Shown one piece after another: positions 734 to 64,000 of a DNA stretch of 64,000 nt. The translations under genes were made by a program, and so were the position numbers. Numbering within the stretch: the stretch's first letter is position 1; each line of letters begins with the position of its first letter. Source of the stretch: Tubiluchus corallicola (taxonomy: Eukaryota > Animalia > Priapulida); the NCBI GenBank assembly GCA_030141605.1, contig JAQGDQ010000882.1:1-64000 (forward strand), written 5' to 3'. Below the pieces are notes generated by a model. The model saw only the letters and a program-made list of their open reading frames with translations, had not been told where the DNA came from and did not search any database.

Positions 734-1177
734 TCTGAACAAATTAACAATGTCTTCATAGACAATGCGATCTGAGTAAAATAACAATGTCTTCATAGAC
801 AATGCGATCTCAGCAAATTAACAATGTCTTCATAGACAATGCGATCTGAGCAAACTAACAATGTCTTCATAGACAATGCGATCTAAGCAAACTAACAATG
901 TCTTCATAGACAATGCGATCTAAGCAAACTAATAATGTCTTCATAGACAATGCGATCTAAGCAAACTAACAATGTCTTCATAGACAATGCGATCTAAGCA
1001 AACTAATAATGTCTTCATAGACAATGCGATCTAAGCAAACTAACAATGTCTTCATAGACAATGCGATCTAAGCAAACTAACAATGTCTTCATAGACAATG
1101 CGATCTGAGCAAACTAACAATGTCTTCATAGACAATGCGATCTGAGCAAACTAACAATGTCTTCATAGACAATGCGA
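734..1177. repeat. 37-bp minisatellite, 12 copies, derived from the 3' end of the NRK CDS
   Basis: Unit tctragcaaactaacaatgtcttcatagacaatgcga repeats with exact 37-nt period from 734 to 1177 and overlaps the last codons of the minus-strand NRK. Confidence 0.95.
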
Positions 1178-1740
1178 TAACAATCATTTACGTCGAGCGT
1201 TCCATCAACGTATGTCAATGGTACATTGAGAGCTTCTAATTCGTGCTTGTTCTTCAAGTACATGGGCCAAACCACTTTGTCAAAATATGTTTCAGGGGGA
1301 GGGATTGTGACAGTGGGGTAGGTGCGAGACTTTCGACGTTTAATGCACTCGGCGTATGGCAGTGTGAAGAAGTAACGCCTCTCAAAAAGTTTGTTTAGAG
1401 GTTGGTAATTGAAAATCAGTATGCCGTCAACGATTACGACTCTAACAGAATCTACGGTCGATGTTATCTTGTCTGACGAAAACTGAACTGAACACTTATC
1501 TATTTCTTCTAGCAAGTCTTTGGTAAGTTGCGGAAAATCGAGTGCGGTTACGGCGTCAAAATTCACGTAATTTAACTCCGGAACGAGCGTATGTCCCGGC
1601 CAGCCGCAGTCGAGATTGTAGTACTTGTCGGCGCTAAGCAAAACGCTGTTGGGAAACGAGTTCAGTAGTTGCTTAGCAACCGTTGTTTTTCCGCCGTTCG
1701 TAACGCCGCCCAGACCGATCACAATGCAATTTCTTTCCAT
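1126..1740 (-). CDS. Nicotinamide riboside kinase family protein, paralog A (~204 aa, intronless CDS)
   Basis: MERNCIVIGLGGVTNGGKTT P-loop, SADKYY, IVDGILIFNY, RRYFFTLPYAECIKRRKSRTY, YFDKVVWPMYLK all parallel human NRK1 motifs. ATG 1740 preferred over the ORF-track start 1917 because a ttgtttcag acceptor (AG 1760-1759) lies just upstream. Confidence 0.9.
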   Translation of the reverse strand: MERNCIVIGLGGVTNGGKTTVAKQLLNSFPNSVLLSADKYYNLDCGWPGHTLVPELNYVNFDAVTALDFPQLTKDLLEEIDKCSVQFSSDKITSTVDSVRVVIVDGILIFNYQPLNKLFERRYFFTLPYAECIKRRKSRTYPTVTIPPPETYFDKVVWPMYLKNKHELEALNVPLTYVDGTLDVNDCYRIVYEDIVSLLRSHCL

Positions 1741-2903
1741 CCGAATGCCATGTAACTTCTGAAACAAATGAGGAACGTAATAAATGACATAAAAGCGACA
1801 AAATGGCTGCAAAATTAGTAAAAAAAAATCATAATTTGAATAGAAATGAGAATTAAGATACTTGATGGCATACCTTTTAAGTAAAAAAAACAAAACAAAA
1901 ATATAACGAAATATCATATAGGAACAGAACTTAAAAGGACCTTACTCAAGTATAAGGAAAGGAGGGTAGAAAACACATGAGAGATGCACAGCAAAGATGC
2001 CCCATATTGTCTTTATTCATTACATAATATAGACTGCTTAAAATAAGATGTTGAAGCAATAATTTAGACAAAACAGAAATTATTGCACAACACAATATCA
2101 CAAAAATTACGTTTTGCTTTGCAATATTATAGGTAAAATTCAGTTTATTAAATTCATTAATAACATACCACACAAGAAAATAAAACTTTGTGTTATACAA
2201 AACTGTGTTTACACATAGTTGGACTACTGACCTCAACTGGGCAGATATTTGTGTGAGTAACAAGTGATGATAACACAGGTCAAAAGTCACAAGCAGACTG
2301 TTAGAAAAGGAGAGTTAACTGTGCACATATTAACCCTAAAGCTTGATTCACAGGGTAAATTACGGAGCCGAAATTTTACCAGAATAATGGTGAGCTGAAC
2401 TAATTTTACATACGAGAGCAAATTTATCTAAAATTGTAGGTCTATATTAGTAATAAAGTTAGTTTTTATAAAACAGTGCGAGAAATACAATCTCTATTTA
2501 CTGAAATTTTATGAGCAAGGGTTGTCGGGATCACCATACTGGTCAGAACGATCTTGACCACTGACCAGTCTAAATCACAAAGTGGTATGTTATTTATGAA
2601 TAAGTTCAGCAGCCTTACAGCAAGAGATTCAGTACTCTGTGTAACTCTGTATAGAATTTGCATCATGCAACTGTTTCTTTCTCAAGCCCTGGTAATCAAA
2701 CTACAGGAAGTACTACAGGAAGTGCTTGCAGTGAAGAATGTGAAAAGAGTTTATTTTAAGTTCTTGTACAAATGCCTGGTACCTAACAAATCTACATGAA
2801 TGAACTACCACACACTTTAATTAACTTTGCTCATGTGCTATACGAAACGGCAGTTCTTTCTGCTTAGTACAACAGAGAAAGTAGAAGAATAAAAATAAAA
2901 ATA

Positions 2904-4121
2904 ATGAAGAAGTGCATTGTGATTGGCCTCGGTGGCGTCACCAACGGTGGAAAGTCGACCGTCGCTCGGCGATTGCGGTTCCTGTTCCAGAACAGCGCGT
3001 ACTTCTGCGCTGACGACTACTACCACTTCGACACGCAGTGGGAGGGACACGAGTGGGTGGCGGAAGTGAATTACATGAACATGGATACGGTAACGGCGGT
3101 GGATTTTGCCAAACTGACGCGGGACGTAAGAAAAGAAATGGCAACGAGCGAACAATCGTGCAGAATGAAACTTCGAGAACAAAGAAAAATGACAAAAACT
3201 CAAATGGCGAAAGTTTTCGTGGAAGGTGAACAGAGAACCGAGGAGTTGGGTATCGAAAATATCGACATTGATGATGATCCTATATGGAAACTGCATCACA
3301 AATCACATAACAGTACTAGTGCAGACGACACAAGTAACAATGATATTGAAAACACACAAGGTAATGAAGAACATGATATTTTCAACGGAGAACCATATAG
3401 ATCATATGAGGAGCTAAAAGAACTGCATCATAACAGCTCTAAAGATGATGATTTGAGTAATGCTCACATTAAGAAAACACAGTACAGCATTGAAGCTTGT
3501 GATAGAAGTAACAATGATGTTAGAAAGACACAAAGTAACGAAGAGGACGATATCTTCAACGTAGAACTGTTCAAGTCGTGTGATGAACTAATGAATCTAG
3601 ATCATAAAAGCTCAAAGACGGATGATATAAGCAATGATCATGTCGAGAGCACACATTACAGCACTAATGCAGATGATACAAGTAACAATGACATTGAAAA
3701 CACACAAAGTAACGAAGAAGACGATATCTTCAATGAAGAATTGTTCAAGGCATGTGATGATCTAAAAAAACTGCACCACATCACGTTAAATTCATTAAAT
3801 ATTAGCGAAGTTAAACTTGTTATTGTTGATGGTATAATGATCTTTAACTACGCACCGTTGGAAAGATTACTTGATCTTCGCTACTTCTTCGTTTTACCCT
3901 ACAATAAATGCAAGGAAAGAAGAAAAAACAGGGAGTATTCCCCGCTCATACCGAGCGATTACTTTGACAAAGTGGCTTGGCCGATGTACTTAAAAAACAA
4001 AGCAGATTTAGAGAAAGCCAAGGTGGATATGATTTACATAGATGGCAGCACGGACAGAAACGAAAATTTGGTGTTGATTTACAGAGATATTATTAGAATA
4101 ATAGCTGACATATTGGCTTGA
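2904..4121 (+). CDS. Nicotinamide riboside kinase family protein, paralog B (405 aa, large acidic repeat insert)
   Basis: GLGGVTNGGKST P-loop, CADDYY, IVDGIMIFNY, LRYFFVLPYNKCKERRKNREY, YFDKVAWPMYLK; ~220-aa insert between the two halves of the kinase fold. Confidence 0.9.
   Translation: MKKCIVIGLGGVTNGGKSTVARRLRFLFQNSAYFCADDYYHFDTQWEGHEWVAEVNYMNMDTVTAVDFAKLTRDVRKEMATSEQSCRMKLREQRKMTKTQMAKVFVEGEQRTEELGIENIDIDDDPIWKLHHKSHNSTSADDTSNNDIENTQGNEEHDIFNGEPYRSYEELKELHHNSSKDDDLSNAHIKKTQYSIEACDRSNNDVRKTQSNEEDDIFNVELFKSCDELMNLDHKSSKTDDISNDHVESTHYSTNADDTSNNDIENTQSNEEDDIFNEELFKACDDLKKLHHITLNSLNISEVKLVIVDGIMIFNYAPLERLLDLRYFFVLPYNKCKERRKNREYSPLIPSDYFDKVAWPMYLKNKADLEKAKVDMIYIDGSTDRNENLVLIYRDIIRIIADILA
3309..3780 (+). 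repeat. Coding tandem repeat, 174 bp / 58 aa, ~2.7 copies inside NRK paralog B
   Basis: SNNDIENTQxNEExDIFN motif recurs at 58-aa spacing (nt ~3309, 3483, 3657). Confidence 0.85.
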
Positions 4122-11785: not shown

Positions 11786-12787
11786 TCAATTCATCTGTGT
11801 AATGAGTCCAATGATGTCCTTATGAACGGAGTGAAAAATACGATCCACTGGATCCATGCCGTCAATGTAGTTCAGCAGCACACCACCAGATGTCTCTAAT
11901 TCCTGTTTATACTTCACGTACATGGGCCAGGCGACGGCGTCGAGGTAACCGTCGATCTCGGGCAGCTCGTACGCGCGGGCGTTCCGTCTGCGGACGCACT
12001 CCTCTTTCGGCAGCGTGAAGAAGTAGCGCAAATCGAACAGTCTGCACAGCGGTTGATGATTGAAGATGAGGATGCCTTCGACGATGATGATGGAAACATC
12101 GCAGTGACCTGCACCGGATTCCGCAGGACAATGTCCTGTGGTCATTTCGTCCCTCTCAGCAGAATCAGCATCGCCATTACTATGTAATTTCTTCACAGCA
12201 ATACCGTCACGGCTTGTCGGTAGGTAATTATCACATTCATTCTTACCCTGATTATACTTATTTAAATCTACATTATCGTCACCGAATGTTACAACTCTAG
12301 GTAGTACATCTATAGTCATGTCATCTCCACCTTTGTGTGGATTTCCAGTCAATTCAAGCGAGTTTTTTTCAAGACGCATCTGCACTTTTGCACTTTCGCT
12401 GCCATCCGGAAACGTAGGATGTCGCAAATGTCGCGGACTGGATGATTTGTGGTTCGATCGTCGTTGTTCGAGCAGTTGATTTAGCTGACCTTCCGAAGTC
12501 CGATTCTCGGCGGCAAAAATGGCGTCGCGCACCGCCAACGTCAACGAATCATTGTCTATGCTGCTCAAAATGTCGAAATTTGCAAACGAATCTCCGCCAA
12601 ACTCGGGAAGACGAACGTGCTTATCACTATCCAGCGGCCAGTAGAAATCGTCCGCGCGAATGACCCGCGTCCTAGGGAACGTGTCGCAGATCCGTTTTGC
12701 CAGCGTAGACTTCCCGCCGTTAGTGACGCCGCCTAGGCCGATGACGATGCAGCGGCTGACAGATCTGGCACTCCCGACGCCCGCCAT
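11786..12787 (-). CDS. Nicotinamide riboside kinase family protein, paralog C (~333 aa, intronless CDS)
   Basis: CIVIGLGGVTNGGKST, RADDFY, IIVEGILIFNH, LRYFFTLPKEECVRRRNARAY, GYLDAVAWPMYVKY. ATG 12787 (MAGVGS) follows a strong polypyrimidine tract and AG at 12803-12802. Confidence 0.9.
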   Translation of the reverse strand: MAGVGSARSVSRCIVIGLGGVTNGGKSTLAKRICDTFPRTRVIRADDFYWPLDSDKHVRLPEFGGDSFANFDILSSIDNDSLTLAVRDAIFAAENRTSEGQLNQLLEQRRSNHKSSSPRHLRHPTFPDGSESAKVQMRLEKNSLELTGNPHKGGDDMTIDVLPRVVTFGDDNVDLNKYNQGKNECDNYLPTSRDGIAVKKLHSNGDADSAERDEMTTGHCPAESGAGHCDVSIIIVEGILIFNHQPLCRLFDLRYFFTLPKEECVRRRNARAYELPEIDGYLDAVAWPMYVKYKQELETSGGVLLNYIDGMDPVDRIFHSVHKDIIGLITQMN

Positions 12788-13095
12788 CGGAGCGTTATGA
12801 ACTAGAGGATGAAAGCAAAGAAGAGAATTGGAGAAAACAGCACAGCAGAGACAGAGAGAATTGATTCTAACTAGCCGCTTCATTAGCGATTTAACAGCAT
12901 GCTTATCTCAGCGGTAAAACAAACGACTTGCAGATTAAAACAACAGATGGCGTTGATGGTACAGCGTTTAAACTTAACGTAAACACAAAACAAGTAATAG
13001 ACTTTCAGCCACTGATAAATAAACACCAGACTCAGTAACTTCTACCCATTTATTATTATTTAGATTGGAATGAGAATAATCACATGGTTAAGAAC

Positions 13096-29600: not shown

Positions 29601-32600
29601 ATGGCGAGCGTGATTTTGGTAAAAGTGGTCTGTCTTGCCGTATTTTCCGTCGGCTTTTCGTCATCTACAGAAATCACACCTGTAGCTATATGGGGATCAA
29701 ACAGGTAAACGTTTTCTAAGTATTTGTTATAGTGAAGATGCCTCTCAGAAGTTTGTAAATGAAAATGCGTCACAACGTTTTCCTTCAAGTTCAGAAATGA
29801 CTAATGTCAGTAATGGTAATGAGGTGTTCTGCTTCATAACCAATAAATTGGGACACATTTTTGTTTTTACCGCACATCGCTAATTTGGCGTGTTGCTTTG
29901 CTTACTTTAAAATTACCGTTTCCCTACTGTCCCGGTTTTTTCCTTTAAATTTAAAATTACGGTACCTATTGATATAACAAAATAATAACGAATAAATAAT
30001 TATTAACTTCGTTTTACCATAATTACAATCAAGTAAAATTAAACTAACAATTCTTTACTATACAATACATAAAGCAATTTTACAACTTTAATCAGACAAA
30101 GAATAATGAAGTATTCAATGGGTGATCATTTTTAGTCATAATTAATATTATGTGGCAAGTTGTTCAGCTCACAAGCCAAAGCTTGTACGAGAGACTCTGA
30201 CAATGAAACAGAGATCTGTTAGTACAAAAGGAGATGTGGATGAAGTTGCTAGTGACATTGACAAGAGTAGAGATATGACAATATGTAACACAGCAGTAAA
30301 CCTGATTTTGTTAAGTAAAATTAAAATAAATACAACGTCAAAAGAAGGATGACAAAAAGTAAATAGTTATGCAATTAGTCACCTCATAATTAGAATACAA
30401 GTAGGAGATTTGTGTTCTTGTAGTAAGGTCACGAAAAATTGTAATCAAAAATCATATTAACAATTCTTTCCTCATAACCAGGTCTATTTACAGGGTTCCC
30501 GCGGTCAGGGAAAATTCTTGAAAATGCTGGCTATCCTGGATAGTCAGGGAAAATATAATTTGGTAAAAAGTTAGGGAAAATGATGAAAATGGGGTGGAAG
30601 GTCGGGGAATTTTTCAGCGATTCTTGTCCAAATATAATTTTGATATTACAGGCTCCCAGTTGCAATTTCTGTTCAATAATAACGATTGGTGGACACATTA
30701 TGTAGCAATATACGTATGAATGTCCATACACAAAAATGTTTGAAAATGTCATGGAAATTTATTCTAAAGGGGAACCATGTATTTAGCAAAGTACAGTTGT
30801 CTTTAGAACCATATCTGATGTTGAATAAAATGAGAAAGCCGGTTTTTTGCACAAGCAACGACAGTCTTTCTATATCATTTTTCAACATGTATTTTTGGTA
30901 CAGGGTGTTCCAAAAGGACCACACACACACACATATATATATATATGTATATACTTAACACTCGACTGTAGTTCTTTGTGATTTTGTCAGCCTGCTTCAG
31001 CTGATTTCTACTACTATTTCTTTAGGAACACCCTGTATAAAGGTTATTTTGGAGGTGACACACAGACGCGCACGCATGCACGCACACACATACACACACA
31101 CACACACACACACATATATACTTAACACTCGACTGTAGTTCTTTGTGATTTTGTCAGCCTGCTTCAGCTGATTTCTACTACTATTTCTTTAGGAACACCC
31201 TTTATGAAGGTTATTTTGGAGGTGAGTGTGTTAGATTATATCACTTGTCATTGAGATCCTTGCAAAACCAGAGAGCGGACAAAAATACTTTGCTTTTTTA
31301 TTTTTAATGATTTATTCTTTTCTGGTTTTGCAGGGATCTCGATTGACGAAGTGTACCCGTGCGCCAGTGTGTTAACACACTTCGCTCACTTTCTGTATTT
31401 TGACGACGCTCCGTATCTCTAAAAGTTGTGATACGTCATCATTTACTCTGATACTTCTTCATTAGGATCTCTAAGTTGTGGAAGTCTCGTGTCTGTGAAG
31501 TCTAGGACGTTTAGCTATCACCTTTTCAACTTGTTGCTACATTGAATGTGAGTTTATGCTCCGTATCTCTAAAAGTTGTGATACGTCATCTTTTACTCTG
31601 ATACTTCTTCATTAGGATCTCCAAGTTGTGGAAGTCTCGTGTCTGTGAAGTCTAGGACATTTAGCTATCACCTTTTCAACTTGTTGCTACATTGAATGTA
31701 AACTCTCAAAAGTTAGTTACCGCTGTTTCAGTTTGGTGACTCAGTGCCTGACAATTTAAATCACGTCCCTCACGCGAGGTTCAGATCTTCTTGCGTAAGC
31801 AAGCATAGAGTTCATATTAGGTTTCTCCTCAAGCTATAGACGTGTTGAATGTGTACTAACCATCTTCCCGAACATCGTTTCAGTTTGGTGAGTTAGAGCC
31901 TGTCAATTTAAATCACGTCTGTCACGCGAGGTTCCGATCTTCCTGCGTAAGCAAGCACAGAGCTGATATTAGTTTTCTCGTCAAGCTATAGACGTGTTGA
32001 ACCTGTACTAACCAAACATTGTTTCATCGCTACGAATGATGGATGTAACGGCTTTGTTCAAGGCTTGCGTAAAGACTGTAAAAATGCGCAACAAAGCGCT
32101 TGGCATTGGCAATGATGTCGATAAAAGCATTCTGAATAGAAGCAGGAAATGTGAATTTTCTCAAACTGCCAAGGAAGTGGTAAAGGACGTCGGAGAACTT
32201 CGCGCATTTTTGCTCAAACACAGAAAGGATTATGTCAATGTGGGGCACTTGACGTCGGAAACCGGTCACATGACTGACGTTCAGAGAGACCAGATTGATT
32301 CCGCTGCTACCGAGTTTGTACGTAAATGTACGGCAAGGATTATGCAGTTAAAGAATCAAGTAGCGATGAAGGGCCTGTCCAAACAAGCGGTGGAGCATCG
32401 CCAGCGCGTTCTTGATCTCATCCAGGCGTACTTAAAACTGGTTTGTAAGATTTTTAGTGAACAGCGTGCAGTCAGGATAAGACGGAGCGAGGACCTCCGG
32501 CGTATTATGCGATTTGAACCGGGAAAGTCTCCAAGTCTGAAAGCTCAGGCGTCTTCGTCGGCCGGGAATTCGAAAGAAGGAACCCCTCCAGAGAGTTTGT

Positions 32601-35600
32601 CTAAAGTTTCAGACAGGCGTAAGGAAGATTTGGAGAAAACAGAACGGCCCTCGAAGGTGGCAAAAATGGCTTCAGGTATGGATGACGAAGAATCCGGGTT
32701 GTCTCCGGAAGAAATTGCTCAGTTTGAGCAGGAAAACACTTACCTGTATCGGGACATGAACAACATAGTGGAAGAGGTTCGGCAGATTGAAAGCTCGGTG
32801 GTGGAGATCACGCGGCTACAGGAAGTCTTCACGGAGAAAGTTCTGGAGCAGGAGAAGGACATTGACAGAATTTACGATGCCGTCGTAGGTACGACGGAGA
32901 ACGTAAAGGAGGGGAACGAACAGATTAGAGAGGCGATGAAAAACAATGCGGGATTTAGAGTTTGGATATTGTTCTTCCTGGTCGTGATGTCACTGTCGCT
33001 TCTTTTCTTAGACTGGTACAATGCCTAAATAAAAGTGAACCTGTCTACTTGGACACAACGTCGAATTTGTAAATATTAGTGATAGATTGTTTGATAATCG
33101 GAGTCAGTGATTGGTTGAATTAGTGACAGATTGTTTGATAATCGGAGTCAGTGGTTGGTTGAACTAGAAAAAGGTGATTTGGAATGACACTAACTGATGC
33201 CTGTTTTCTATTAATTGAATTACTAGTATTTAGCAATGGGCGATTAATAGATTAATCGAATTAATCACGATTACAACCATGTATAAATCAATTTATTCGA
33301 TGATTGAACAGTAATTCGATTAATCGACATTAACCGAGAGTAAAATATACGTCAATCAATCAATCAGTTTATTTCACTCCATCAATACATATACAATACA
33401 TCAACATACAATTCGGACCAGTGCAGCAAGCTCACTGACTCCGGCAGCTCCTGCAGCCAACCTGGTGCCAAACGTATCGCTCCGTTTTCCTTTGGACTAC
33501 ACCGGGGAGGAAGAGAGGGGATTCCTGTTGTCTGGGCAACTCAGGATCTCCATACACCTTGCCCAGGCGTGCACCCTGGAGACGTTCAAGGATCGCACTG
33601 CTCAGCCACAGTCGACGCTGCAGCTTCATCAATGTGATCAATAACTGACTCTCTTGGTGCACACTCCATTGTCTTCCGAGACAGAAGGATGCCAACCAAT
33701 AATGTGATTTAAAAAAAGAAACAGTGTAGGTAAAAAGCGTTGATGAAGTCAAATCAACCAAACTGCTGTAAGTGTCACTGACAAAAAGGCAGTATGTTAG
33801 CACAAATAAATGGAATTTTTTCATTTTTTCTTAATTTTTCTCATCTTCCACAATGCACACAATCATGAACCACAGTGTTGCAAACTGTGGGCTTCAAATT
33901 CAATGACACGCGATGCTTGTAGTGACATAGTCATTGAGTAGTTAACAAAAGATCATGTATTATGCGCCTATAAAATAGTTTCCGAGTACAGAAATGGCAG
34001 GCAACGGTGAAGCTGTGAAGACATTATAGGTTATATTTCACTGCTGTCATAGAAAAATATGGCTAAAACATGGAGAATTAATGTCAATTGGAAATTTCAT
34101 TTATGACTGTATGCATAGATTTGTGAATTAAATAGTATAACTTTGTTAGCGGACGTATAACCGCATGACTATGATTATCGTATAGGTAAAATATTTGTTT
34201 ATGAAATGTCGTACAAATGCTTAGTAAATAGTTGTTTTCTCTTCATAGAGTTTACAACTAAATTTGTATATTTGTATATATATATCTTGTGCAGCTATGT
34301 TGAGTCAAATTGTTAGTATGATCTATAAATCATTACCCGAGCTCTGCCCGCTGATAAAACCATCGGGTATGCGTCGAGTTTGTAATTCTCATGTTGAAAA
34401 TTTGATTTTCAGAAATAAAATATCTATCTATCTAATTATTGAATTACAAGAACAGGATTATAATCAAATTGCAAATTTCTTAATCACTCATCAATACTAG
34501 TATTACCATCACATATATTTGATACTAGTCATTTAAAAGTGACAGTCTTAACTGGCAGGCGTGTCTTCATGAGTTACTTCATGAAACGTGCAACATTGCC
34601 ATCTGGATCGGCTCTGTGGTGCTGATGATTCTGGAGGTTAGACGTCTATCGAAAAAATTGAATTTGATGCCAAATACCTTTAAAGAGAAGGAGAGAGCCT
34701 GCTCTGATCGTGCACTGTTAACACTAATTTATGTCTAATTTATTGCAGTCAGAAAGGTTGCATTACGCTTAAACCTTAGTGGGTATTGATTGACTTACTC
34801 TTACCTGTGATTTTGCATTAATTGTGCTGTGAAAATAATCCAGTCAAAAATAGTCATTAGAGAAACATAACGAACGATTTGTATAAATTGTGGCCACACC
34901 AATAATACACTTTATTAACAAAATTCAAATTTAACTGTTACACTTTACATTTTAAATGAAGTTACAAATCATAAGAAAAATAATCACATAATTCACAGCA
35001 CTTTAAATGAATAATCTCATATATAGACCTATATAAAAAACAAGAAAAAGGGGACCACCTTTTGTGGTACCTGCTGATAGGTGGTCACCGATCAGCGGTG
35101 ACACTTCCTTTTTCTAGGCAAAGTTAACTATGCATGAATGAAGCATACGATCTAAATAATATTGTAAGGCCAGCAAAGAAGCCAGGCTTGGTTTAAAGCG
35201 GATTTTCCGACAACGTCGACTCGTGTAGCCTGTAGTTTGTTTCGACTGCCGATAATTATTCTGTTTAAATTCTGTGAATGTTGACCTTCGGGATTTACTG
35301 CATTCTTCTCTAAAATTGTAACCAATGAGTTTGGTTTCTGTAACCAGTTATATTATTTATACTCAATATCTGTGATCTATGTAGTGTAACTTAATGAATT
35401 TTTAGTAAGAAATGATGCTGGGGAAGTAATTGGTGCAGTGCTGTCTTTACTTCCGCATTTTGTACATTTGATTTTGTACCTGTATTTGTATGTGGTGATT
35501 TGGCAGATCAGTTAATAAATCGATAAAATCTTTCATTATCATATTATATCTCTTTGTTTGTGTACAATTCAGGTACTGACCGATGGCCTTCTTGCTCTGA

Positions 35601-50354: not shown

Positions 50355-50617
50355 GTATGATTTTGCAAGAAGTATGTTCTTTTTATTTCCAGATGCAGTT
50401 TTTCATGAGCTCTGGCAGTAACAGCACCATGAAGTTTGGACCGCCTGACGATTGCGTCGGTTTCTTCACCATAGCTATATGGATGGGCATCTTCACCACT
50501 TTGATCATAATCACCATTCTGTCATTTGGCATATTCGTGTTAATGTCCATCAAGACAATGGACAGGTTTGACGATCCCAAAGGCAAGACGATAACGGTTC
50601 CGGCAACGGAGGGATAG
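29601..50617 (+). CDS. ATP6AP1: V-type proton ATPase accessory subunit S1 / Ac45, ~453 aa; exons 29601-29704, 38716-38839, 39678-39755, 41257-41473, 43234-43328, 45138-45355, 47117-47247, 48655-48824, 50393-50617
   Basis: Signal peptide MASVILVKVVCLAVFSVG, PVAIWGS, FFVQDVLSIEDITKYG, NDQLIGQV..YTAFYTG, furin-type RVARQLLQ, GYSYHCS, DCVGFFTIAIWMG TM helix, MDRFDDPKGKTI tail. All junctions GT-AG and in phase (1362 nt total). Confidence 0.93.
31409..32012. repeat. Two consecutive ~150-bp direct duplications upstream of STX18
   Basis: 31409-31549 repeats at 31558-31699; 31726-31862 repeats at 31878-32012. Confidence 0.85.
32036..33028 (+). CDS. STX18: Syntaxin-18 (ER Qa-SNARE), intronless, nested in ATP6AP1 intron 1
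   Basis: [119 protein letters not shown] overlapping the stop. Confidence 0.95.
   Translation: [330 protein letters not shown]
33414..33699 (-). mobile_element. Interspersed repeat (SINE or RTE-type 5' region), copy 2
   Basis: Reverse complement of 4461-4725. Confidence 0.6.
36822..37310. mobile_element. MITE (CAGGCTGCATAAGATTATGG TIR), copy 1
   Basis: caggctgcataagattatggata...tatccataatcttatgcaccctg; related copy 54948-55507. Confidence 0.8.
37715..38290. repeat. 41-bp minisatellite, ~14 copies
   Basis: tgtatgtactgtttatgtgtaaatatgttatgtatgtaaaa repeated. Confidence 0.95.
38335..38636. repeat. (TTG/CTG)n trinucleotide microsatellite
   Basis: Direct inspection; produces poly-Cys/Leu/Val pseudo-ORFs. 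Confidence 0.95.
39027..39657. repeat. 22-bp minisatellite ending just before the ATP6AP1 exon 3 acceptor
   Basis: tactgcttgaataagtggtca(a/g) repeated ~28 times. Confidence 0.95.
39805..40922. repeat. Diverged ~480-bp direct duplication
   Basis: ~39805-40300 resembles ~40448-40922 (shared gtaagctggtgtctgctgggcagcgtgaatg and gccagcacgtagtagg). Confidence 0.75.
41652..42186. mobile_element. Non-autonomous repeat with internal (CT)n expansion, possibly Helitron-derived; copy 1
   Basis: Matches 48184-48493, which lacks the (CT)n tract at 41835-42042. One end reads CTAG|T on the minus strand. Confidence 0.7.
42644..43230. repeat. ~56-bp minisatellite abutting the ATP6AP1 exon 5 acceptor
   Basis: tttgattgtatagtagtgagaatgttttgtttctacacctttacagttctttgact, ~10 copies. 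Confidence 0.9.
43527..44094. repeat. 57-bp minisatellite, 10 copies, most with GCCGCCATTTTG
   Basis: aagaaaactgatagtaaatagcaaacacgacacaacagccgccattttgtttttact repeated. Confidence 0.95.
44390..44872. mobile_element. Non-autonomous DNA element (GGGATGAGA termini), copy 3, inverted
   Basis: Reverse complement of 18316-18832 and 20813-21255. Confidence 0.8.
45994..46440. mobile_element. MITE related to 14758-15696
   Basis: tacactcgtatctcggtttgccg...cggcaaaccaagatataagtgta termini. Confidence 0.7.
46551..46873. repeat. 19-bp minisatellite, ~17 copies
   Basis: ttacaaaattttccrtgcr repeated. Confidence 0.95.
48184..48493. mobile_element. Non-autonomous repeat, copy 2 (see 41652-42186)
   Basis: Near-identical to copy 1 without the (CT)n tract. 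Confidence 0.7.
48520..48610 (-). mobile_element. tRNA-derived SINE head fragment
   Basis: Minus-strand B-box GGTTCGAATCC with a degenerate A-box upstream; no intact cloverleaf. Confidence 0.5.
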
Positions 50618-51882: not shown

Positions 51883-53049
51883 TGCAGTTTAACTGACTGG
51901 CCATTGGCATAGTTGTGTCTAGTCTTTCGCTGGATTACCGCTGTGTTTACTGGTCTTGAGGGAAAATTTCATTTTAGAATTCTGTCGGCTCAATATCTAT
52001 AATGGATGTAACAGGCATTACGAAAGTGTAAACTTTTGCCATTGGTGTTTTATTCATACATAATTGTTTATCGAAGATATAGGTTAGCATAATTAGGTCA
52101 AATTAGGTAACAAATAATTGGATAGTTCAGCTGATTATAATAACTCATTCCGACAATGTTTGGAACAGCCATATTTTCTTTACTTTTGGTTGTATGAAGT
52201 AAAATGTATCGATTAGCACGGAGTAGTATCGCAAACGTTTGTACACTTAATACATTTTAAAAAGTATTTTATTAAAGATGGAGAATATTAGTTGTTTTCA
52301 GCTAAAATCATTTCTCAAGAGTCTAGCAATTTAAACGAGTAGAAGATGCTGTTATGCACAAGACTGTCTTTTCTTACCGCATCTTTTAAACTCTGAGTCA
52401 CTTTGCATTATTATGTTAAGCAAATTTCTTTTGAACTGTCTATCCGTTATTGCACTGTGAATTCCTTTAGTTTTCATGCCATTTTTGTAATCATGTGATG
52501 TGAATTTGTGTTGCATTTTGTACGTAGTTTGTTATTTTGGCTAAAGTTTACCATTCTCCCGCACACAAGGAATTTGTTTGTGAAGCTCATTAGGGTGAGG
52601 GTGAGGGACCATCCACACATATAACAATATCGAGTTTTCAGCCGATTTTGAGGACCCTACCTGTCTTGCGTTGTAACGGCATTATCACTGCCCCCTATTG
52701 ATTGACATGGATATCCCACCTATGTACCTTTCGTACACCTTCCTCCTCCTTCCAAGGACAGGTACCAGCATCACTTGTTGATTAACGGCAAAACCATCAG
52801 CGGATTCTAATTTCACTCCGCCGGGATCAGGGCCCTTGTAGGGTCGTCTGCTGCTGGCACGCACAGGTGTCATGAGTAAATCATGTCTGCTTGCCCTGCT
52901 GCGTGAATTCTGCAGCGTTACCATGTCTCCTATCACCAATCTCCTACCCTAAACTTGATATGTGGATAGTCAGTTAGGGTTAGGATTAGGGGTAGGGTTG
53001 GGGTTAGGGTATTTAAGTTGTGGGGATTGTTAAACTCCTTCCGTTATAT

Positions 53050-55861: not shown

Positions 55862-56652
55862 TTTTGATACAGAACGTGATAACTTGATGAATTATCAAGT
55901 TTTTTGATATTAAACATGATAACGTGACGAATTATCAAGTTTTTTGATACAGAACATGATAACGTGATGAATTATCAAGTTTTTTATACAGAACATGATA
56001 ACGTGATGAATTATCAAGTTTTTTTATACAGAACATGATAACGTGATGAATTATCAAGTTTTTTGATACAGAACATGATATGAATTATCCAGTTTTTTGA
56101 TACAGAACATGATATGAATTATCCAGTTTTTTGATATTGAACATGATATGAATTATCCAGTTTTTTGATACAGAACATGATAACGTGATGAATTATCAAG
56201 TTTTTTTATACAGAACATGATAACGTGATGAATTATCAAGTTTTTTGATACAGAACATGATAACCTGATGAATTATCAAGTTTTTTGATACAGAACATGA
56301 TATGAATTATCCAGTTTTTTGATAGAGAACATGATATGAATTATCCAGTTTTTTGATACAGAACATGATAACGTGATGAATTATCAAGTTTTTTGTTACA
56401 GAACATGATAACCTGATGAATTATCAAGTTTTTTTTATACAGAACATGATAACGTGATGAATTATCAAGTTTTTTTTATACAGAACATGATAACGTGATG
56501 AATTATCAAGTTTTTTTGATACAGAACATGATAACGTGATGAATTATCAAGTTTTTCTTAAAACTACCAGTGAGGAATCAATTCTCGCTGGGCTCAGTAA
56601 CAATGTAATTTTTTAAAACTGCGCTACTGGGTGTTGCAAAAAAAACTGTGAC
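55862..56652. repeat. ~38-bp minisatellite expanded within a repeat element also present at ~49400-49570
   Basis: gatacagaacatgataacgtgatgaattatcaagtttttt x ~18, followed by the same cttaaaactaccagtga...gttgcaaaaaaaactgtgac tail seen at 49475-49570. Confidence 0.9.
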
Positions 56653-57230: not shown

Positions 57231-57395
57231 AAATTGTGCAGTAAAATCACAGCTAAATTGTGCAGTGAAATCACAGCTAAACTGTGCAGTGAAATCACAG
57301 CTAAATAGTGCAGTGAAATCACAGCTAAATAGTGCAGTGAAATCACAGCTAAATTGCGCAGTGAAATCACAGCTAAATTGTCCAGTGAAATCACT
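57231..57395. repeat. 24-bp tandem repeat x~7
   Basis: aattgtgcagtgaaatcacagcta repeated. Confidence 0.9.
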
Positions 57396-57451
57396 ACGCT
57401 TTTGCAGTACTATGTGCTGATTTATTTAAACTTGTGTTGCCCCCTCTTTTC

Positions 57452-58034
57452 TGTTATAAACTGGTTTCCTTTTAAACAGGTCATGTGACCAGACTCTTAC
57501 CTGTACACTTACCTGTAGATTGGAGTCACTCAGGCGTTCACACACTGCAGTGACAAATTGTTTAGCGTCAGTCATTGATTCGTTGTTATAATTTCATAAT
57601 TACACTTATACAAGATCACCATGTAAGTTGATTTCTTAATTTCTTACATCTTGAACTTTTGTTTATTAAAAAGACTAAAGATTAGATTTTATAATTTGCG
57701 TAAAACTTTGTTAAAGTTAATTAGATAAATTTGGTTTAGATTTCGCAGTAAAATTGAGCAAAATTATATAAAATTATCTTATTTGTTTTCAGATTAAACA
57801 ATACAAGCTACACAATTATGTTGTTGGAGTTTTTTTTATAAGAAGGTAGCACAGTTTAATATGATTCTTGGTGTAATTGACATGGACGACAGCTATACGG
57901 TGTGTCCTTGAGTAAGCTGGTATCTGGGGCAACACTGCAGAGCGGTTTAACTTCGAGCTACGCTACGTGTATACCTGATAGTATTATATTGACAATGAAG
58001 CCAGAGCTGCTGTACGATACTACAGGATTTAACA
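57452..58034 (+). repeat. Putative 5' LTR
   Basis: Begins TGTTA and ends TAACA (inverted termini), 40 nt before the gag ATG. The second LTR is outside the window, so boundaries are unverified. Confidence 0.5.
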
Positions 58035-58074
58035 TTACGAGCAAGTAGAAATATATTTGGACTTTTAAAGCAAA

Positions 58075-60141
58075 ATGACTGATCCTTCAAACCAAATTCA
58101 GTTGAGAAAACTTGAACTTAAAAATAAAAAGCAAGAAGAATTAAGAGATATTCTTCGTGAAAGAGGGTTGATAGTTCATGGTAATAAAGCTGAATTAGTC
58201 ACAAGGATAATTGAAGATGAGCACAGCAAGTGCATTGCAAGTGCAATGCATGAGTGCAGTGCATTGCAAGCAGCAAGCACTCATGACAAGGAAGCCGGAA
58301 CTGATGCGGATGAAAAATCAGCAAAAGCAACTTCAGAGCGGAAAAGCAAGCATAGCGCAAAGGGAGCTAAGAGGGATTCTCTATTCGCATCTTCCAAGAC
58401 AGCTTCAAAGATGAGTGAGAGAAAGTTACGACTTAATGAACTGAAAATACAAGAGCAGGAATTAAAGCTGCAAGCAATGAAAATAAGGCATGAACGTTTG
58501 CAGAGTGAATTCTCAGGTGAGCAGAAGTCGCAGGTAACTGACATTAAACCAGCCTATTATGTGGCGCCACCTGTTGCCGAAAAATGGACTAAACAGAAGG
58601 TCGCTGAATGGTTGAAGCAATCTGAAGACGTATCTGCAGATTTGCAACAAATAAGTGGAAAGTTTGAAGGCTCCAATAGTACAAATAAATACAAAACGCA
58701 AGCCTTCGTAACTCTTGCAACAAATGACAAGTATGCTTTAGGCGCTCTAGTTTTAGCAAGCAGCCTGCGTCGTGTCAGTACAGCTCGTTACTTAACTGTC
58801 ATGGTTACAAATAATATATCGCAAAATATGATGAGGCATCTTCGCGATAAATTTGACTATGTTCAACTAGTTGAAACAATAGATGGTAATGATCCTGAAA
58901 ACCTGTATTTATTAGGAAGACCTGAGCTGAACGTAACCTATACCAAATTACATTGTTGGCGCCTCACACAATTTAGCAAGTGTATTTTCTTGGACGCCGA
59001 TACGTTGGTCCTGCAAAACATTGATGAACTCTTCCAAAGAAAAGAGTTTTCAGCAGCACCTGACGTCGGATGGCCCGACTGTTTTAATAGCGGCGTGTTT
59101 GTGTTTCAGCCAAGTATAGACACGTTCAATCAACTTGTTTCGTTTGCGACGTCTACGGCTAGCACGTTTGACGGAGTTGACCGAGGGATGCTAAACCAGT
59201 ACTTTAGTAATTGGGCTACAGTGGCTCTACCTATGGGCGAGGCTAGGTACGAATCAAGAATGTTCAGCGAGTGGTTTCATATTTACAATGCTGACGTTAT
59301 GCCTATGTTACATGAGCAACGTATAAGCAATGAAGCGCGATATAATTTCCGTGATTTTAAAAACTTGCCCGCGGATGACTTAAATGTTTCAGCACCCACA
59401 TTTGCCCCCGGGTTTCCAAGTAAAAGCGTGAGCCTTTGCTCAACCTCATACGTAGGCAAACATAAACAACTGCCAGCAACGTCGGCTATAGATGAACCTA
59501 CTCGCGGATTGCAATGGATGGACCAATCTCAGGACATGACAGCATTCATGAATATCATGCGTGAAGGACAGCGTCAGCAAATGAACATGTATAATGCCAT
59601 GCAGCTTCCTGCGGTTGAGCTTGAAAAATGTGATGGCAATGTGATGCATTTCTGGCGTTTTATTAAGCGCTTCGAGGCCAGTGTAGAGAATTACACAGAA
59701 GATGAGGCAGCAAAACACACAAGGTTACTACAACTCTGCACTGGAAGAGCTAAGGCTGTCGTGGAAAGTTGGCATTATATGGATCCCCATATGGCCTTTA
59801 GACGTGCTAAGTATTTGCTAACAGAACGGTTTGGATCTCCCTACATGGTAACTCAGGCTTGGTTGGATAAAAATAACAATTTTAGTTGTATAAAAATACA
59901 GGAGCCAGAAAAGTTACAGGAGTTCTCAGATGCACTTGTTGGGTGTATTGAAACATTAAAATGCATGAACAATTTGAGTGAAATCAATACTCAATCCGGT
60001 TTACTGCAAATTATTAGAAAGCTGCCATATAAGTTCCAAGACAAATGGAAGGATGTTGTGTGCCGGTTACTGAAGACGCAAAACAGGAACCCATCCATAT
60101 ATGATGCAGTTGACTTTGTGAAAAAGCAGCAGAGAAGATGA
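58075..60141 (+). CDS. BEL/Pao Gag with N-terminal SAP-like motif and an in-frame captured glycogenin (GT8) domain
   Basis: aa ~13-47 SAP-like; aa 209-382 [19 protein letters not shown]...[37 protein letters not shown]...[22 protein letters not shown]...[18 protein letters not shown] is glycogenin-like; aa ~510-688 BEL capsid region. Confidence 0.92.
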
Positions 60142-60311
60142 ATCATCCAGTATAGGAGAATTGTATAACAATGGCCCAAAGAGAGTAAAGCAAAGCAGTG
60201 CAGCCAAAAACTTTGCCAGCATTTCTAAAAATATTGCAACTCCTGGTGCTTCTACGCAAGTTATAAGGGTGAAAGAACGCAATTTAGAAGAGAGCAAGAA
60301 GCCAGGAAACA

Positions 60312-63305
60312 ATGCCAAACAATGCTTGTTGTGTAACTCGGCTGAGCATGTATCATTACAAAAATGCAAAAAGATTTAGCACGATGAATGACATGGAGAA
60401 ATTGGCATACACAAGGAAAGAACGTTTGTGCTACAATTGCCTGGCTAAAGGGAGACACAGAGCCTACCAGTGTACAAAACCCCCCTGCGATGTGGATGGA
60501 TGCAACCGGAAACACTCTTCCTTACTTCACCATGCATTAGAAAGAAATGCACAAGCACAGCAGAACAATGCAGCTAGCCAAACGGATATGGATCGGCAAA
60601 GCACAACTCGAGCAGTTTCGTGTCTAAATAAAGCTTCCCGCAGAGTCACAAAGGCGGCGTTACCAGTAGTGCCAGTCTTAGTACATGTAGAAGTGAAAAG
60701 ACCTGTAAAAACATTGGCATTATTAGATCCAGGTTCTACAAACACCTTTTGTTCGAAAGCACTGTTTAATCAACTTGGAGCCAAAGGAAAAGAAAATGTT
60801 CTGTTGTTAACTACTATAGAGAAGAAACATAGCAGGACAGACACAATGGTAACTAGCATGACAGTCATGAGGATGGATAGAAACAACCATATAGAGCTCC
60901 CTTGTGTATTTGTTCGGCCTACTCTCATGTTAGATGTTCAATCTCTAGCAACGCATGAAGATGTGATAAAATGGCCGCATCTCCGAGACTTAGATGATGT
61001 TCTAATGAGCATAGAGGAGAAAGATCAAATGGAATTAGGTCTCTTGATTGGTCAAGATGTCGGTGAAGCATTAATTCCCCTTGAAGTAAGGACGGGGGAA
61101 AAGGACGCCCCATATGCCATTAGAACCAAACTAGGTTGGACGCTTAATGGCCCTATAGGGGGCGGTAGAGTCAATATGTCAGTAGCAAATAACATGATTT
61201 TAACAAACGGAATGCAGAACCAGGATGAAAAACTGCAAAACCTTGTTGAGAGATTTTGGAAATTGGACAGTGTAGATGACGATGGACGTCTGTCCAGAGA
61301 AGACATTAAAGTACTAGACATTTGGGAGAAATCAATCACAAAACGAGGTGACCATTATGAACTGCAGATACCATTCAAAGAGGAAAAATGCAAATTACCA
61401 AATAGCCGGGAGATGGCAGAAAAGAGGCTGGCTAGTTTGGGCACCAGACTAAACAAGAATCTAAAATTACATGAAAAATACACCGAGGAAATGAATGATT
61501 TACTTAGAAAGGGATATGCGGAGAAGGTTGAAGAAGCAGACGACCAAGATGTCACAATGAAATGGTATCTCCCACATTTTCCTGTTTATAATGAAAATAA
61601 GCCTGACAAAACTCGGATAGTTTTCGATTGTGGAGCGAAATGTGATGGCATCTCGCTGAACATATTAGCATTACAGGGACCTGATCTGACCAACACACTT
61701 CTTGGAGTATTATTGCGATTCAGGGAGAAGCCCGTTGGAATGATGGCAGACATAGTGGGCATGTTTCATCAAGTCTTCGTTGCTCCTCAGAACAGAGACA
61801 TGCTACGCTTCCTGTGGTGGCCAGATGGACAATTGGATAAACCACCACAAACTTATAGGATGACAGTGCATTTATTTGGAGGGGTTTGGTCCCCGAGTGC
61901 AGCATCCTTTGCAGTCAGGCGCACGGCAACAGATAATGTGGAAAACTTCGACTGTGGGGCAGTCAGTACTGTGCTGCGCAATTTCTATGTTGATGACTGC
62001 TTGAAATCCGTGGATACAGCAGAGCAAGCTATTAACCTGATTTCTTGCTTGTCTGCATTACTTGCCAAGGGAGGCTTTTGTTTAACCAAATGGACCAGCA
62101 ATATCAAGCAGGTTTTGGCAGAAGTCCCAGAAGAGCACAGAGGCAAACTGGTTCAAAATTTAGACTTGGCTCATGATCCACTTCCCATTGAGCGTGCCCT
62201 TGGGGTCAAATGGGAGGTCGAAGGAGACACCTTTGGAATCCAGGTCAAAACTAGGGATAAACCTCACACCAGACGAGGACTTCTAAGCTCACTGGCTTCG
62301 GTATACGATCCCCTAGGAATGGTAAACCCATTTGTTTTGCAAGCAAAATTGCTTTTCCAAGATGAATGCCGCATCAAAACGAAGTCTTGGGATGATAAAT
62401 TGGAGGATGCCACTGAGAAAAAATGGATTAAATGGAAGAGCGAATGCCAACTTCTAGAGAGTTTCAAAATGAGCCGTTGTGTGAAGCCTTGTGATTTTGG
62501 CACGGTTTTGACAAGTGAACTGCACCACTTTTGTGATGCATCGCAATATGCATACGGAGCTGTTAGTTATATACGTTTAACGAATGACTGTGGTTCAGTT
62601 CATGTATCATTCCTAATGGCAAAGTCTCGACTAGCGCCAATTAAGGGTCTCACAATACCCAGACTGGAGCTGTGTTCAGCAGTACTAGCAGCAACAATGG
62701 ACAAAATCCTAAGAGACAAGTTGTCTTTATACATAGATTCCTCAACTTTCTGGACTGATAGTGTCATAGTTCTGCAATATATAAGAAACACCACAAAACG
62801 GTTTCACACGTTTGTGCAGAACAGAGTGACTCAGATTCTTGAAGTTTCATCTCCCATGCAGTGGCGTCGTGTAAATTCACTGGAGAACCCTGCTGACGAC
62901 GTCTCCCGTGGGATGGATGCGGCTTCCTTGATAGCCTTGGAAAGATGGAAGCATGGACCAAGCTTTCTGCTAGAAACTGAAGAACATTGGCCGCAACTGA
63001 ACATAGATGCAGAGAAAGACTGGATAGAAAACGACAAGGAAGTCAAGAAAGTGGTTACAGTTAACAACATTGAAGCGAAAAGTGAAGCAGATGTAGATGT
63101 CATCAATCAGCTGATAACGCATTACTCATCGCTATATCGATTAAAGAGAGCGGTAGCATGGATACTGAGAGTCAAAAGAACACTTCTAGCTAAAATTAAA
63201 GGAAAAGATCTCACTGAACTGGCTCACCTGACAAAGCCTGAACTGGATGAAGCCTTACACGACATGTACAACGAGAATGCTTTGGTGTTGAACGTAGAGC
63301 ATTAA
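60312..63305 (+). CDS. BEL/Pao Pol segment (zinc knuckles, aspartic protease, reverse transcriptase, RNase H)
   Basis: CYNCLAKGRHRAYQC, CDVDGCNRKHSSLLH, LDPGS, YVDD, CDAS, RLEL. The true frame is entered via a frameshift near 60370. Confidence 0.92.
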   Translation: MPNNACCVTRLSMYHYKNAKRFSTMNDMEKLAYTRKERLCYNCLAKGRHRAYQCTKPPCDVDGCNRKHSSLLHHALERNAQAQQNNAASQTDMDRQSTTRAVSCLNKASRRVTKAALPVVPVLVHVEVKRPVKTLALLDPGSTNTFCSKALFNQLGAKGKENVLLLTTIEKKHSRTDTMVTSMTVMRMDRNNHIELPCVFVRPTLMLDVQSLATHEDVIKWPHLRDLDDVLMSIEEKDQMELGLLIGQDVGEALIPLEVRTGEKDAPYAIRTKLGWTLNGPIGGGRVNMSVANNMILTNGMQNQDEKLQNLVERFWKLDSVDDDGRLSREDIKVLDIWEKSITKRGDHYELQIPFKEEKCKLPNSREMAEKRLASLGTRLNKNLKLHEKYTEEMNDLLRKGYAEKVEEADDQDVTMKWYLPHFPVYNENKPDKTRIVFDCGAKCDGISLNILALQGPDLTNTLLGVLLRFREKPVGMMADIVGMFHQVFVAPQNRDMLRFLWWPDGQLDKPPQTYRMTVHLFGGVWSPSAASFAVRRTATDNVENFDCGAVSTVLRNFYVDDCLKSVDTAEQAINLISCLSALLAKGGFCLTKWTSNIKQVLAEVPEEHRGKLVQNLDLAHDPLPIERALGVKWEVEGDTFGIQVKTRDKPHTRRGLLSSLASVYDPLGMVNPFVLQAKLLFQDECRIKTKSWDDKLEDATEKKWIKWKSECQLLESFKMSRCVKPCDFGTVLTSELHHFCDASQYAYGAVSYIRLTNDCGSVHVSFLMAKSRLAPIKGLTIPRLELCSAVLAATMDKILRDKLSLYIDSSTFWTDSVIVLQYIRNTTKRFHTFVQNRVTQILEVSSPMQWRRVNSLENPADDVSRGMDAASLIALERWKHGPSFLLETEEHWPQLNIDAEKDWIENDKEVKKVVTVNNIEAKSEADVDVINQLITHYSSLYRLKRAVAWILRVKRTLLAKIKGKDLTELAHLTKPELDEALHDMYNENALVLNVEH

Positions 63306-64000
63306 AGTCAAAGGATCAGCATGTCGCAAAGTCAAGCACCTTATACAGACTAAATCCATTTATGGACGAAAAGTGTGTCCTGCGTATTGGAGGCCGCCTG
63401 AAGAGATTAACCATGAATAGAGAAGTAAAGCATCCAATTATTCTACCTAAAGGTCATAGACTTTCTCGGCTTATTGTAAAACAATTCCATGAAGAGAATG
63501 GTCATGTTGGAAGAGACCATGTAATGGCATTGGTAAGAGCAAAGTTCTGGATCGTAGGCATAAGAGTGATTGCTCGACAAGTTTGCCATGAATGTAGAGA
63601 ATGCCGACTACGTCATTCGCAACCTATGAAGCAGAAGATGGCTGACTTGTCGAAAGAGAGGATTGAATGCACTGATGTGTTCTCTGTGGTTGGAGTGGAC
63701 TGTTTTGGTCCTTTTCTTGTCAGACGTGGCAGAGTAGAAGTATAACGCTATGGAGCACTATTTACGTGTCTCTCAACTAGAAGCATCCACTTAGAAGTGC
63801 TATACGCCATGACAACAGACTCTTTCATCAAAGCTTTACACAGATTCTGCAGTAGGAAAGGAAATCCCACCAAGATTAAATCAGATTGCGGAACGAATTT
63901 TGTGGGTGCAGACAAAGAGCTGAAGAAGTCACTGTTGGAATGGAATCAGGACGTAATAAGCAATGAACTACTGCAGAAAGATATTGAGTGGGAGTTTAAC
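63306..64000 (+). pseudogene. BEL/Pao integrase, disrupted (frame break near 63300, in-frame TAA 63743-63745), truncated by the window end
   Basis: LNPFMDEKCVLRIGGRL, KHPIILP, HEENGHVG, CHECREC, GVDCFGP, then *RYGALFTCLSTRSIHLE...KSDCGTNF. Confidence 0.85.

Follow-up and report, generated by a model that had tools for sequence, protein, structure and literature searches.

A glycogenin catalytic core carried in frame within the Gag of a BEL/Pao retrotransposon of the priapulid Tubiluchus corallicola

Host sequences captured by animal LTR elements are, in most known cases, young fragments or separate open reading frames in retroviruses. In plants, the chimeric frame of the maize element Bs1 reportedly begins with Gag. 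Bs1 is an LTR retroelement in which captured host pieces form a chimeric reading frame, according to the available part of a review (PMC13317346). LTR-mediated retroposition in metazoans was treated by Tan et al. (2016; PMC5131818); in the accessible portion of that account, template switching inside particles is a documented capture route for animal LTR elements, one of them the Pao element BATUMI. The retrocopies described there are intron-free host coding pieces within an LTR element. Many are partial and keep the reading frame of the parent protein, and further copying is possible. Crocodilian endogenous retroviruses captured KIT-ligand and nectin3 mRNA, with several decayed copies and purifying selection, as given in the sections available of that report (PMC4299795). 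The domain of interest here is glycogenin, which excerpts of two papers present as a dimer with a separate C-terminal synthase-binding domain (PMC12267440) and with Tyr195 as its self-glucosylation site (PMC12267440, PMC7046021).

The DNA analysed (the window) is 64,000 nucleotides of Tubiluchus corallicola contig JAQGDQ010000882.1. It contains, on the forward strand, a Gag-glycogenin fusion ORF of 688 aa that runs from an ATG at 58075 to a stop at 60141. Three domains follow one another in this single frame: a SAP domain (aa 15-47, positions 58117 to 58215; PF02037, E 4.7e-8), glycogenin (Glyco_transf_8 at aa 212-321, E 8.8e-12 in the Pfam scan) and the BEL/Pao Gag capsid region (DUF1759, aa 520-660, positions 59632 to 60054). 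DUF1759 scores 24.2 bits on the whole ORF and 26.5 bits on the C-terminal part alone, with a cut-off of 25.4. A charged stretch after the SAP domain is likely a coiled coil, judged from sequence only. The earlier note on this DNA had placed an intron-free glycogenin domain between a SAP/coiled-coil N-terminus and the BEL capsid, with both junctions in frame. This layout is borne out: Pfam finds all three domains, and the single ORF reads through the glycogenin segment from Gag and back into Gag without an intron. A host coding piece is flanked on both sides by element sequence. The Gag linker also has an LNxxAxxFxP-type motif at 59380-59420 (aa ~436-448), which we take to resemble PAM2-like motifs. 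AlphaFold models were of low confidence (mean pLDDT 36 and 47), and a PDB sequence search with the Gag C-terminal part as query gave no real match.

The 688-aa Gag reading frame of the earlier note has no internal stop, as claimed, but its end at 60141 is a frame break of the window's copy and not the natural end of Gag; zinc knuckles follow it. Contigs from all four sequencing runs examined have a small indel relative to the window just before the Gag stop. Because contigs show such small indels at the frame breaks, the length of 688 aa reflects damage to the window's copy, and the element family likely has an uninterrupted Gag-Pol frame.

What element carries the fusion? Members of the Belpaoviridae have LTRs of 0.2-1.2 kb and a pol order of protease, reverse transcriptase (RT), RNase H and integrase (PMC8742986). 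In the window, all on the forward strand, three Cys/His zinc knuckles of the nucleocapsid (60323 to 60530) are spread over two frames, both differing from the ORF frame. Pol (60288 to 63305) has the protease motif LLDPG, the RT motif YVDD (RVT_1, E 0.005) and the Pao Peptidase_A17 profile (PF05380, E 1.3e-45). Integrase, with zinc-binding and core parts (PF17921, E 7e-11; rve, E 0.0025), begins at 63251 in a new frame, has a stop at 63743-63745 and continues beyond the window end at 64000. A Gag with capsid region and Cys/His knuckles, and a Pol with protease, RT, then the Pao-specific Peptidase_A17 and integrase, are those of a BEL/Pao element. The window's copy is decayed: its frame is interrupted shortly before the Gag stop, again within the knuckle region, and near 63.3 kb.

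Upstream of the ORF, 441 bp at 57413 to 57853 have TG...CA ends and a 6-bp terminal inverted repeat and are likely the 5' LTR; a 3' LTR would lie beyond the window. Loose contig ends at this repeat (11, 10 and 5 before it; 13, 16, 3 and 3 behind it) lead to many different flanks, which fit an LTR with many solo copies. The contig depth of the repeat is far above that of the element interior, and many solo or non-autonomous copies are suggested. By eye, the repeat contains GT...AG intron-like signals, and behind 57853 no clear primer-binding site was recognised for tRNA-Arg or tRNA-Gly, the primers expected of BEL/Pao elements. A 24-bp array lies just upstream of the element. Dense minisatellite arrays occur throughout the window (e.g. 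57231-57394 and 55862-56556), as does, at 52973-53010, a short TTAGGG-type run.

The N-terminal part of the glycogenin catalytic core is found at aa 208-383 (58696 to 59223), corresponding to human residues 3-177. The match between ORF residues 208-384 and human glycogenin-1 residues 3-178 (E ~1e-66, a single gap of one residue) is far beyond chance. The earlier note had given the domain as aa 209-382; the homology stands, but the domain does not end there, as after a gap the alignment resumes for about 30 residues (aa ~385-413). This second part is the last helix of the core (aa 384-413, positions 59224 to 59313, human ~231-262). The DxD motif is kept at aa 307-309. Among columns that are at least 95% conserved in 119 glycogenins, the N-terminal part keeps 64 of 69, and three of the five missed lie within the FDGGDQGL motif; 113 of the 119 comparison glycogenins miss at most one of 72 such columns. 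The best database matches among those listed are bivalve glycogenins, with 67-69% identity.

Between the two parts, at 59221 to 59223, is the site of an in-frame deletion of 53 codons, seen as a 53-residue alignment gap. The lost part is human ~177-229, counted on the human glycogenin chain. Two conserved Trp residues are 20 residues apart in the window vs 73 in 102 of the 119 glycogenins, and 14 strongly conserved columns of that set fall inside the gap. The deletion removes the Tyr195 acceptor arm and the HF.G..KPW segment, including His212 and Lys218, which are presumably metal and phosphate ligands. Catalysis by the window's copy is therefore not to be expected: with the Tyr195 arm lost and five of 69 conserved N-terminal columns changed, the protein would be inactive. 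Part of the glycogenin dimer interface is missing from it as well. The C-terminal glycogen-synthase-binding motif was not found in three frames over the 1200 bases after the domain, and since it is absent, direct binding of the fusion protein to glycogen synthase is unlikely. The captured piece corresponds almost exactly to the crystallised glycogenin core (263-aa PDB chains).

Is the fusion found in other copies? Contigs of four runs, from two samples and two studies, were aligned to 57400-64000, and 32 of 1908 pieces were listed. Two further runs with the same species label (X5 and X6) had next to none of the sampled words and were left out of the alignment, which speaks neither for nor against the fusion. 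The 5' junction is bridged by at least three contigs from two studies (X1 record 1, X3 record 17 and X4 record 24), one of them from the second study. The 3' junction is bridged by at least three, all from the first sample (X1 record 3, X2 record 11 and X3 record 18). These six contigs have at least 51 bases on each side of the junction; a fourth 5' record, with only 12 bases on one side, was excluded. One of the six (X3 record 18, 1337 bases, from 58845 to 60020) has 159 more bases at 59221, i.e. 53 codons, and two others (X1 record 3 and X2 record 11) break at the deletion site with an overhang of 186 bases. From their place and length we infer that the 159 bases are the missing glycogenin segment. 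Because of these extra bases and the fitting overhangs, the element family is likely to have a complete catalytic core (human ~3-262) and no glycogen-synthase-binding tail.

Contigs of the main type differ from the window by 0.7-3.3% and may be alleles of its locus. Contigs of a second type diverge further, by 7.9% over the enzyme core and by 13.1% over the last helix and the Gag linker as far as 59557. Given this divergence, they represent a separate copy with the same fusion. The domain is therefore not confined to the window's copy; such confinement, together with near-identity to host glycogenin or a dN/dS near 1, was what the earlier note had named as refuting it. Records 2 and 3 are taken as one copy from adjacency and equal depth, and in the capsid a contig of similar depth shows 8.1% divergence from the window. 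Within the domain, the diverged copy has lost single bases at two places, and a 4-base indel occurs in the linker of some contigs. No copy is shown intact among the contigs listed, and every copy that can be judged has lesions. Contig depth was not taken as copy number, as runs of a single sample gave inconsistent ratios. An element without the insert, which would show as a joint skipping the domain, was not seen among 15 of 22 joints. One X1 contig joins the LTR-like repeat at 57520 directly to 58858 in the glycogenin domain and is likely an internally deleted copy that also has the domain. A sibling of the element is represented by P0227, a protein fragment from public contigs that is 76% identical over aa 458-588 of Gag and too short to show the glycogenin domain.

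Has the domain been kept by selection? Forty of 498 differing places, chosen by support, were examined, and 31 of these are inside the ORF. In the domain 8 of 13 differences are synonymous, vs a neutral share of 0.21 (all changes) or 0.34 (transitions) (P 0.002-0.04), a count in which the window's own decay is mixed with lineage divergence. Of the five listed domain changes that only the diverged copy has, four are synonymous. In the rest of Gag the figure is 5 of 18, as expected for decay, and the contrast between domain and rest of Gag is not significant (Fisher P 0.08). The enzyme core is less diverged than the last helix and linker (Fisher P 0.049), and its divergence is about that of the capsid contig of similar depth. 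Selection, which the earlier note had raised as a possibility, thus finds a suggestive, if weak, sign in the synonymous differences of the domain; the counts are small and incomplete, and the contrast with the rest of Gag falls short.

The explanation that we put slightly above an even chance is a single capture, probably through template switching, after which the element was copied further and the domain probably stayed under purifying selection. The captured stretch of host glycogenin mRNA would begin close to the start of the message and reach to where the catalytic core ends. It would have entered the linker ahead of the capsid, after the SAP/coiled-coil N-terminus of Gag. The domain was then likely copied along with the element and probably kept as a dimerising, self-glucosylating module. 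In undeleted copies it is predicted to dimerise and to add short glucose chains to its own tyrosine. Because it has no synthase-binding tail, such a core could reach glycogen particles only via host glycogenin; by pairing with it, the core would tether Gag or particles to glycogen granules. Gag or particles with an active domain would be coated like glycogen granules. Alternatively, the pairing could blunt host priming. A wider reading, tentative and on balance doubtful, is that an LTR lineage adopted a working glycogenin as a standing part of Gag, with particles that start glucose chains on themselves or else pair with the glycogenin of the host, thereby coupling assembly to granules or masking the capsid with glucan. 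That self-glucosylation and pairing tie Gag to glycogen particles, or blunt host priming, is a prediction that we regard as somewhat unlikely.

The main rival shares the capture and denies the function. A folded domain may have been tolerated in the flexible Gag linker, copied as a neutral passenger, and now be decaying. This is a serious alternative, though one with clearly less than an even chance. It would account for lesions in every judgeable copy and for a window copy that is without its acceptor arm and eroded in a conserved motif; host-like CpG suggests that the capture is not very old, and no fused form in other species is among the matches listed. It sits less well with a fusion common to lineages 8-13% apart, with listed differences that lean synonymous and with a core less diverged than the linker.

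Where did the captured piece originate? The ratio of observed to expected CpG is 1.12 in the domain. It is 0.52-0.65 in the LTR, Gag N-terminus, capsid, pol and integrase, and none of 82 segments of 627 bases from the element exceeds 0.75. Four host ORFs of the window have 1.1-1.4, and the comparison of CG with GC gives P 0.03. A high value (1.16) is also found in the 178-bp linker that follows the domain. These values fit a host-derived insert that is not yet at the composition of the element. The host glycogenin gene was not found, the best identity among 379 glycogenins being 69%. In a tree of 50 rows the domain is on a long branch (0.66) and in no supported group, so that the tree names no donor; with the host gene not found, the branch is not divisible between host and element. 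With the parent gene not found, the domain without a supported place in the tree and intron-free host genes in the window, the mRNA route is no more than probable.

Those host genes bear on a further, improbable alternative, in which the source was DNA (an intron-free host gene or an earlier retrocopy) or the glycogenin of another species. Syntaxin-18 and three kinase-like genes in the window are single ORFs, which weakens the intron argument for an mRNA source, and the domain has no close relative or supported place in the tree. On the other hand, the piece begins near the glycogenin start, the element class is known to capture mRNA by template switching, and the last exon of ATP6AP1, with its AG acceptor, shows that host introns exist. 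This exon of the V-ATPase accessory subunit Ac45/ATP6AP1 is at 50392-50617 (+). The syntaxin-18 ORF (32036-33028, +; Pfam Syntaxin-18_N, E 4e-17) is full-length and intron-free. As syntaxin-18 is multi-exon in most animals, it is a retrogene or a case of lineage-wide intron loss. The three intron-free P-loop kinase ORFs (AAA_18) are at 1126-1773 (-), 2907-4121 (+) and 11786-12790 (-); we take them to resemble nicotinamide riboside or uridine kinases, and two have long low-complexity inserts in the same region.

Could the matching contigs be alleles of one locus, either a chimera formed there or a Gag-glycogenin gene domesticated by the host? The main-type contigs are close enough to the window for this, and single-copy depth is uncalibrated. 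A copy 8-13% diverged also has the fusion, however, the element has a complete pol and an LTR-like repeat that leads into many flanks, and in-frame loss of a catalytic segment is unlikely in a functional host gene; we consider this explanation more improbable still. An assembly artefact that joined a retrotransposon to a glycogenin transcript or gene, which the earlier note had named as an outcome that would refute it, is itself largely refuted and has very little probability left: no listed contig spans the whole element and the window's own reads were not identified, but six listed contigs from public data bridge one or other junction, the 5' junction in two studies.

Do fused relatives occur elsewhere? 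None is present in the best 120 of 1283 matches of 378-1204 aa or the best 120 of 2696 under 378 aa. A weak search with the Gag part among proteins of 1205-3440 aa gave none from 321 candidates. The best 150 of 7485 representatives of 50% clusters comprise 149 glycogenin matches, one Gag fragment and no fusion. A Pfam scan of 40 long or offset matches found no retroelement domain. None of 80 metagenome loci has a Gag or Pol match, and P0227 is the only such match among 381 proteins. Contig scans with ORF, Pol and glycogenin alignment gave no fused relative among the matches listed, and no Pol relatives were found in viral contigs. Animal repeats are poorly represented in the databases searched. 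Two long proteins, P0197 (3062 aa) and P0236 (1588 aa), have an internal glycogenin domain and no other Pfam match; neither matches the Gag or Pol of this element. In the literature outside subscription journals, Repbase and supplements, no glycogenin-retroelement fusion was found among the papers listed. The statement in the earlier note that no Gag-glycogenin fusion is known agrees with the matches listed and with the literature searched. The fusion is a real and lineage-restricted form of LTR-element gene capture, its function being predicted only.

If selection holds, the element is a natural experiment on which cargo the N-terminus of Gag can take and for what reason, and it would link retrotransposon particles to glycogen metabolism. 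The effect of a tail-less glycogenin on host glycogen priming is directly assayable. Were the working-glycogenin reading true, a host metabolic enzyme would have been recruited as a structural module of a retroelement particle. If neutral, the fusion remains a clear case, and a datable one, of a domain shuffled into Gag.

How does the fusion compare with the known systems? Its domain is 60-69% identical, approximately, to animal glycogenin-1 (GT8; human GYG1, PDB 3t7m / 7q0b) over the N-terminal 175 residues; unlike glycogenin-1, the domain of the window is embedded in Gag and is without the synthase-binding motif and human residues ~177-229. The element resembles the Belpaoviridae in the size of its likely 5' LTR, in a Gag with capsid and nucleocapsid, and in pol order, but the one extra gene in the family profile is an occasional env-like one, and the profile includes no enzyme domain within Gag (PMC8742986). 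LTR-mediated retrocopies, in the available text of their description, are young (less than 1% diverged in Drosophila) and are non-autonomous loci with discontinuous element flanks; here copies are 8-13% apart, gag and pol domains are all present, and a whole enzyme core is inside Gag (PMC5131818). Bs1, as far as its account is accessible, is a plant element with three fragments, none a full-length ORF, whereas here one near-complete catalytic domain is found in a pol-keeping animal BEL/Pao element (PMC13317346). The crocodilian elements are retroviruses. In the portion of the report available, their captured genes are separate ORFs between pol and env or replacing env, no viral domain was lost with the KIT-ligand capture, and the cargo is of signalling and adhesion type with formal tests of selection; here the cargo is a metabolic enzyme inside Gag, and selection is suggested only (PMC4299795). 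In the present case the structural protein appears to have taken in an entire enzyme core, in an element that retained all its own domains and continued to diverge. The kind of event is thus known, but the cargo, its place inside the Gag of a pol-keeping element and its persistence across diverged copies appear to be new.
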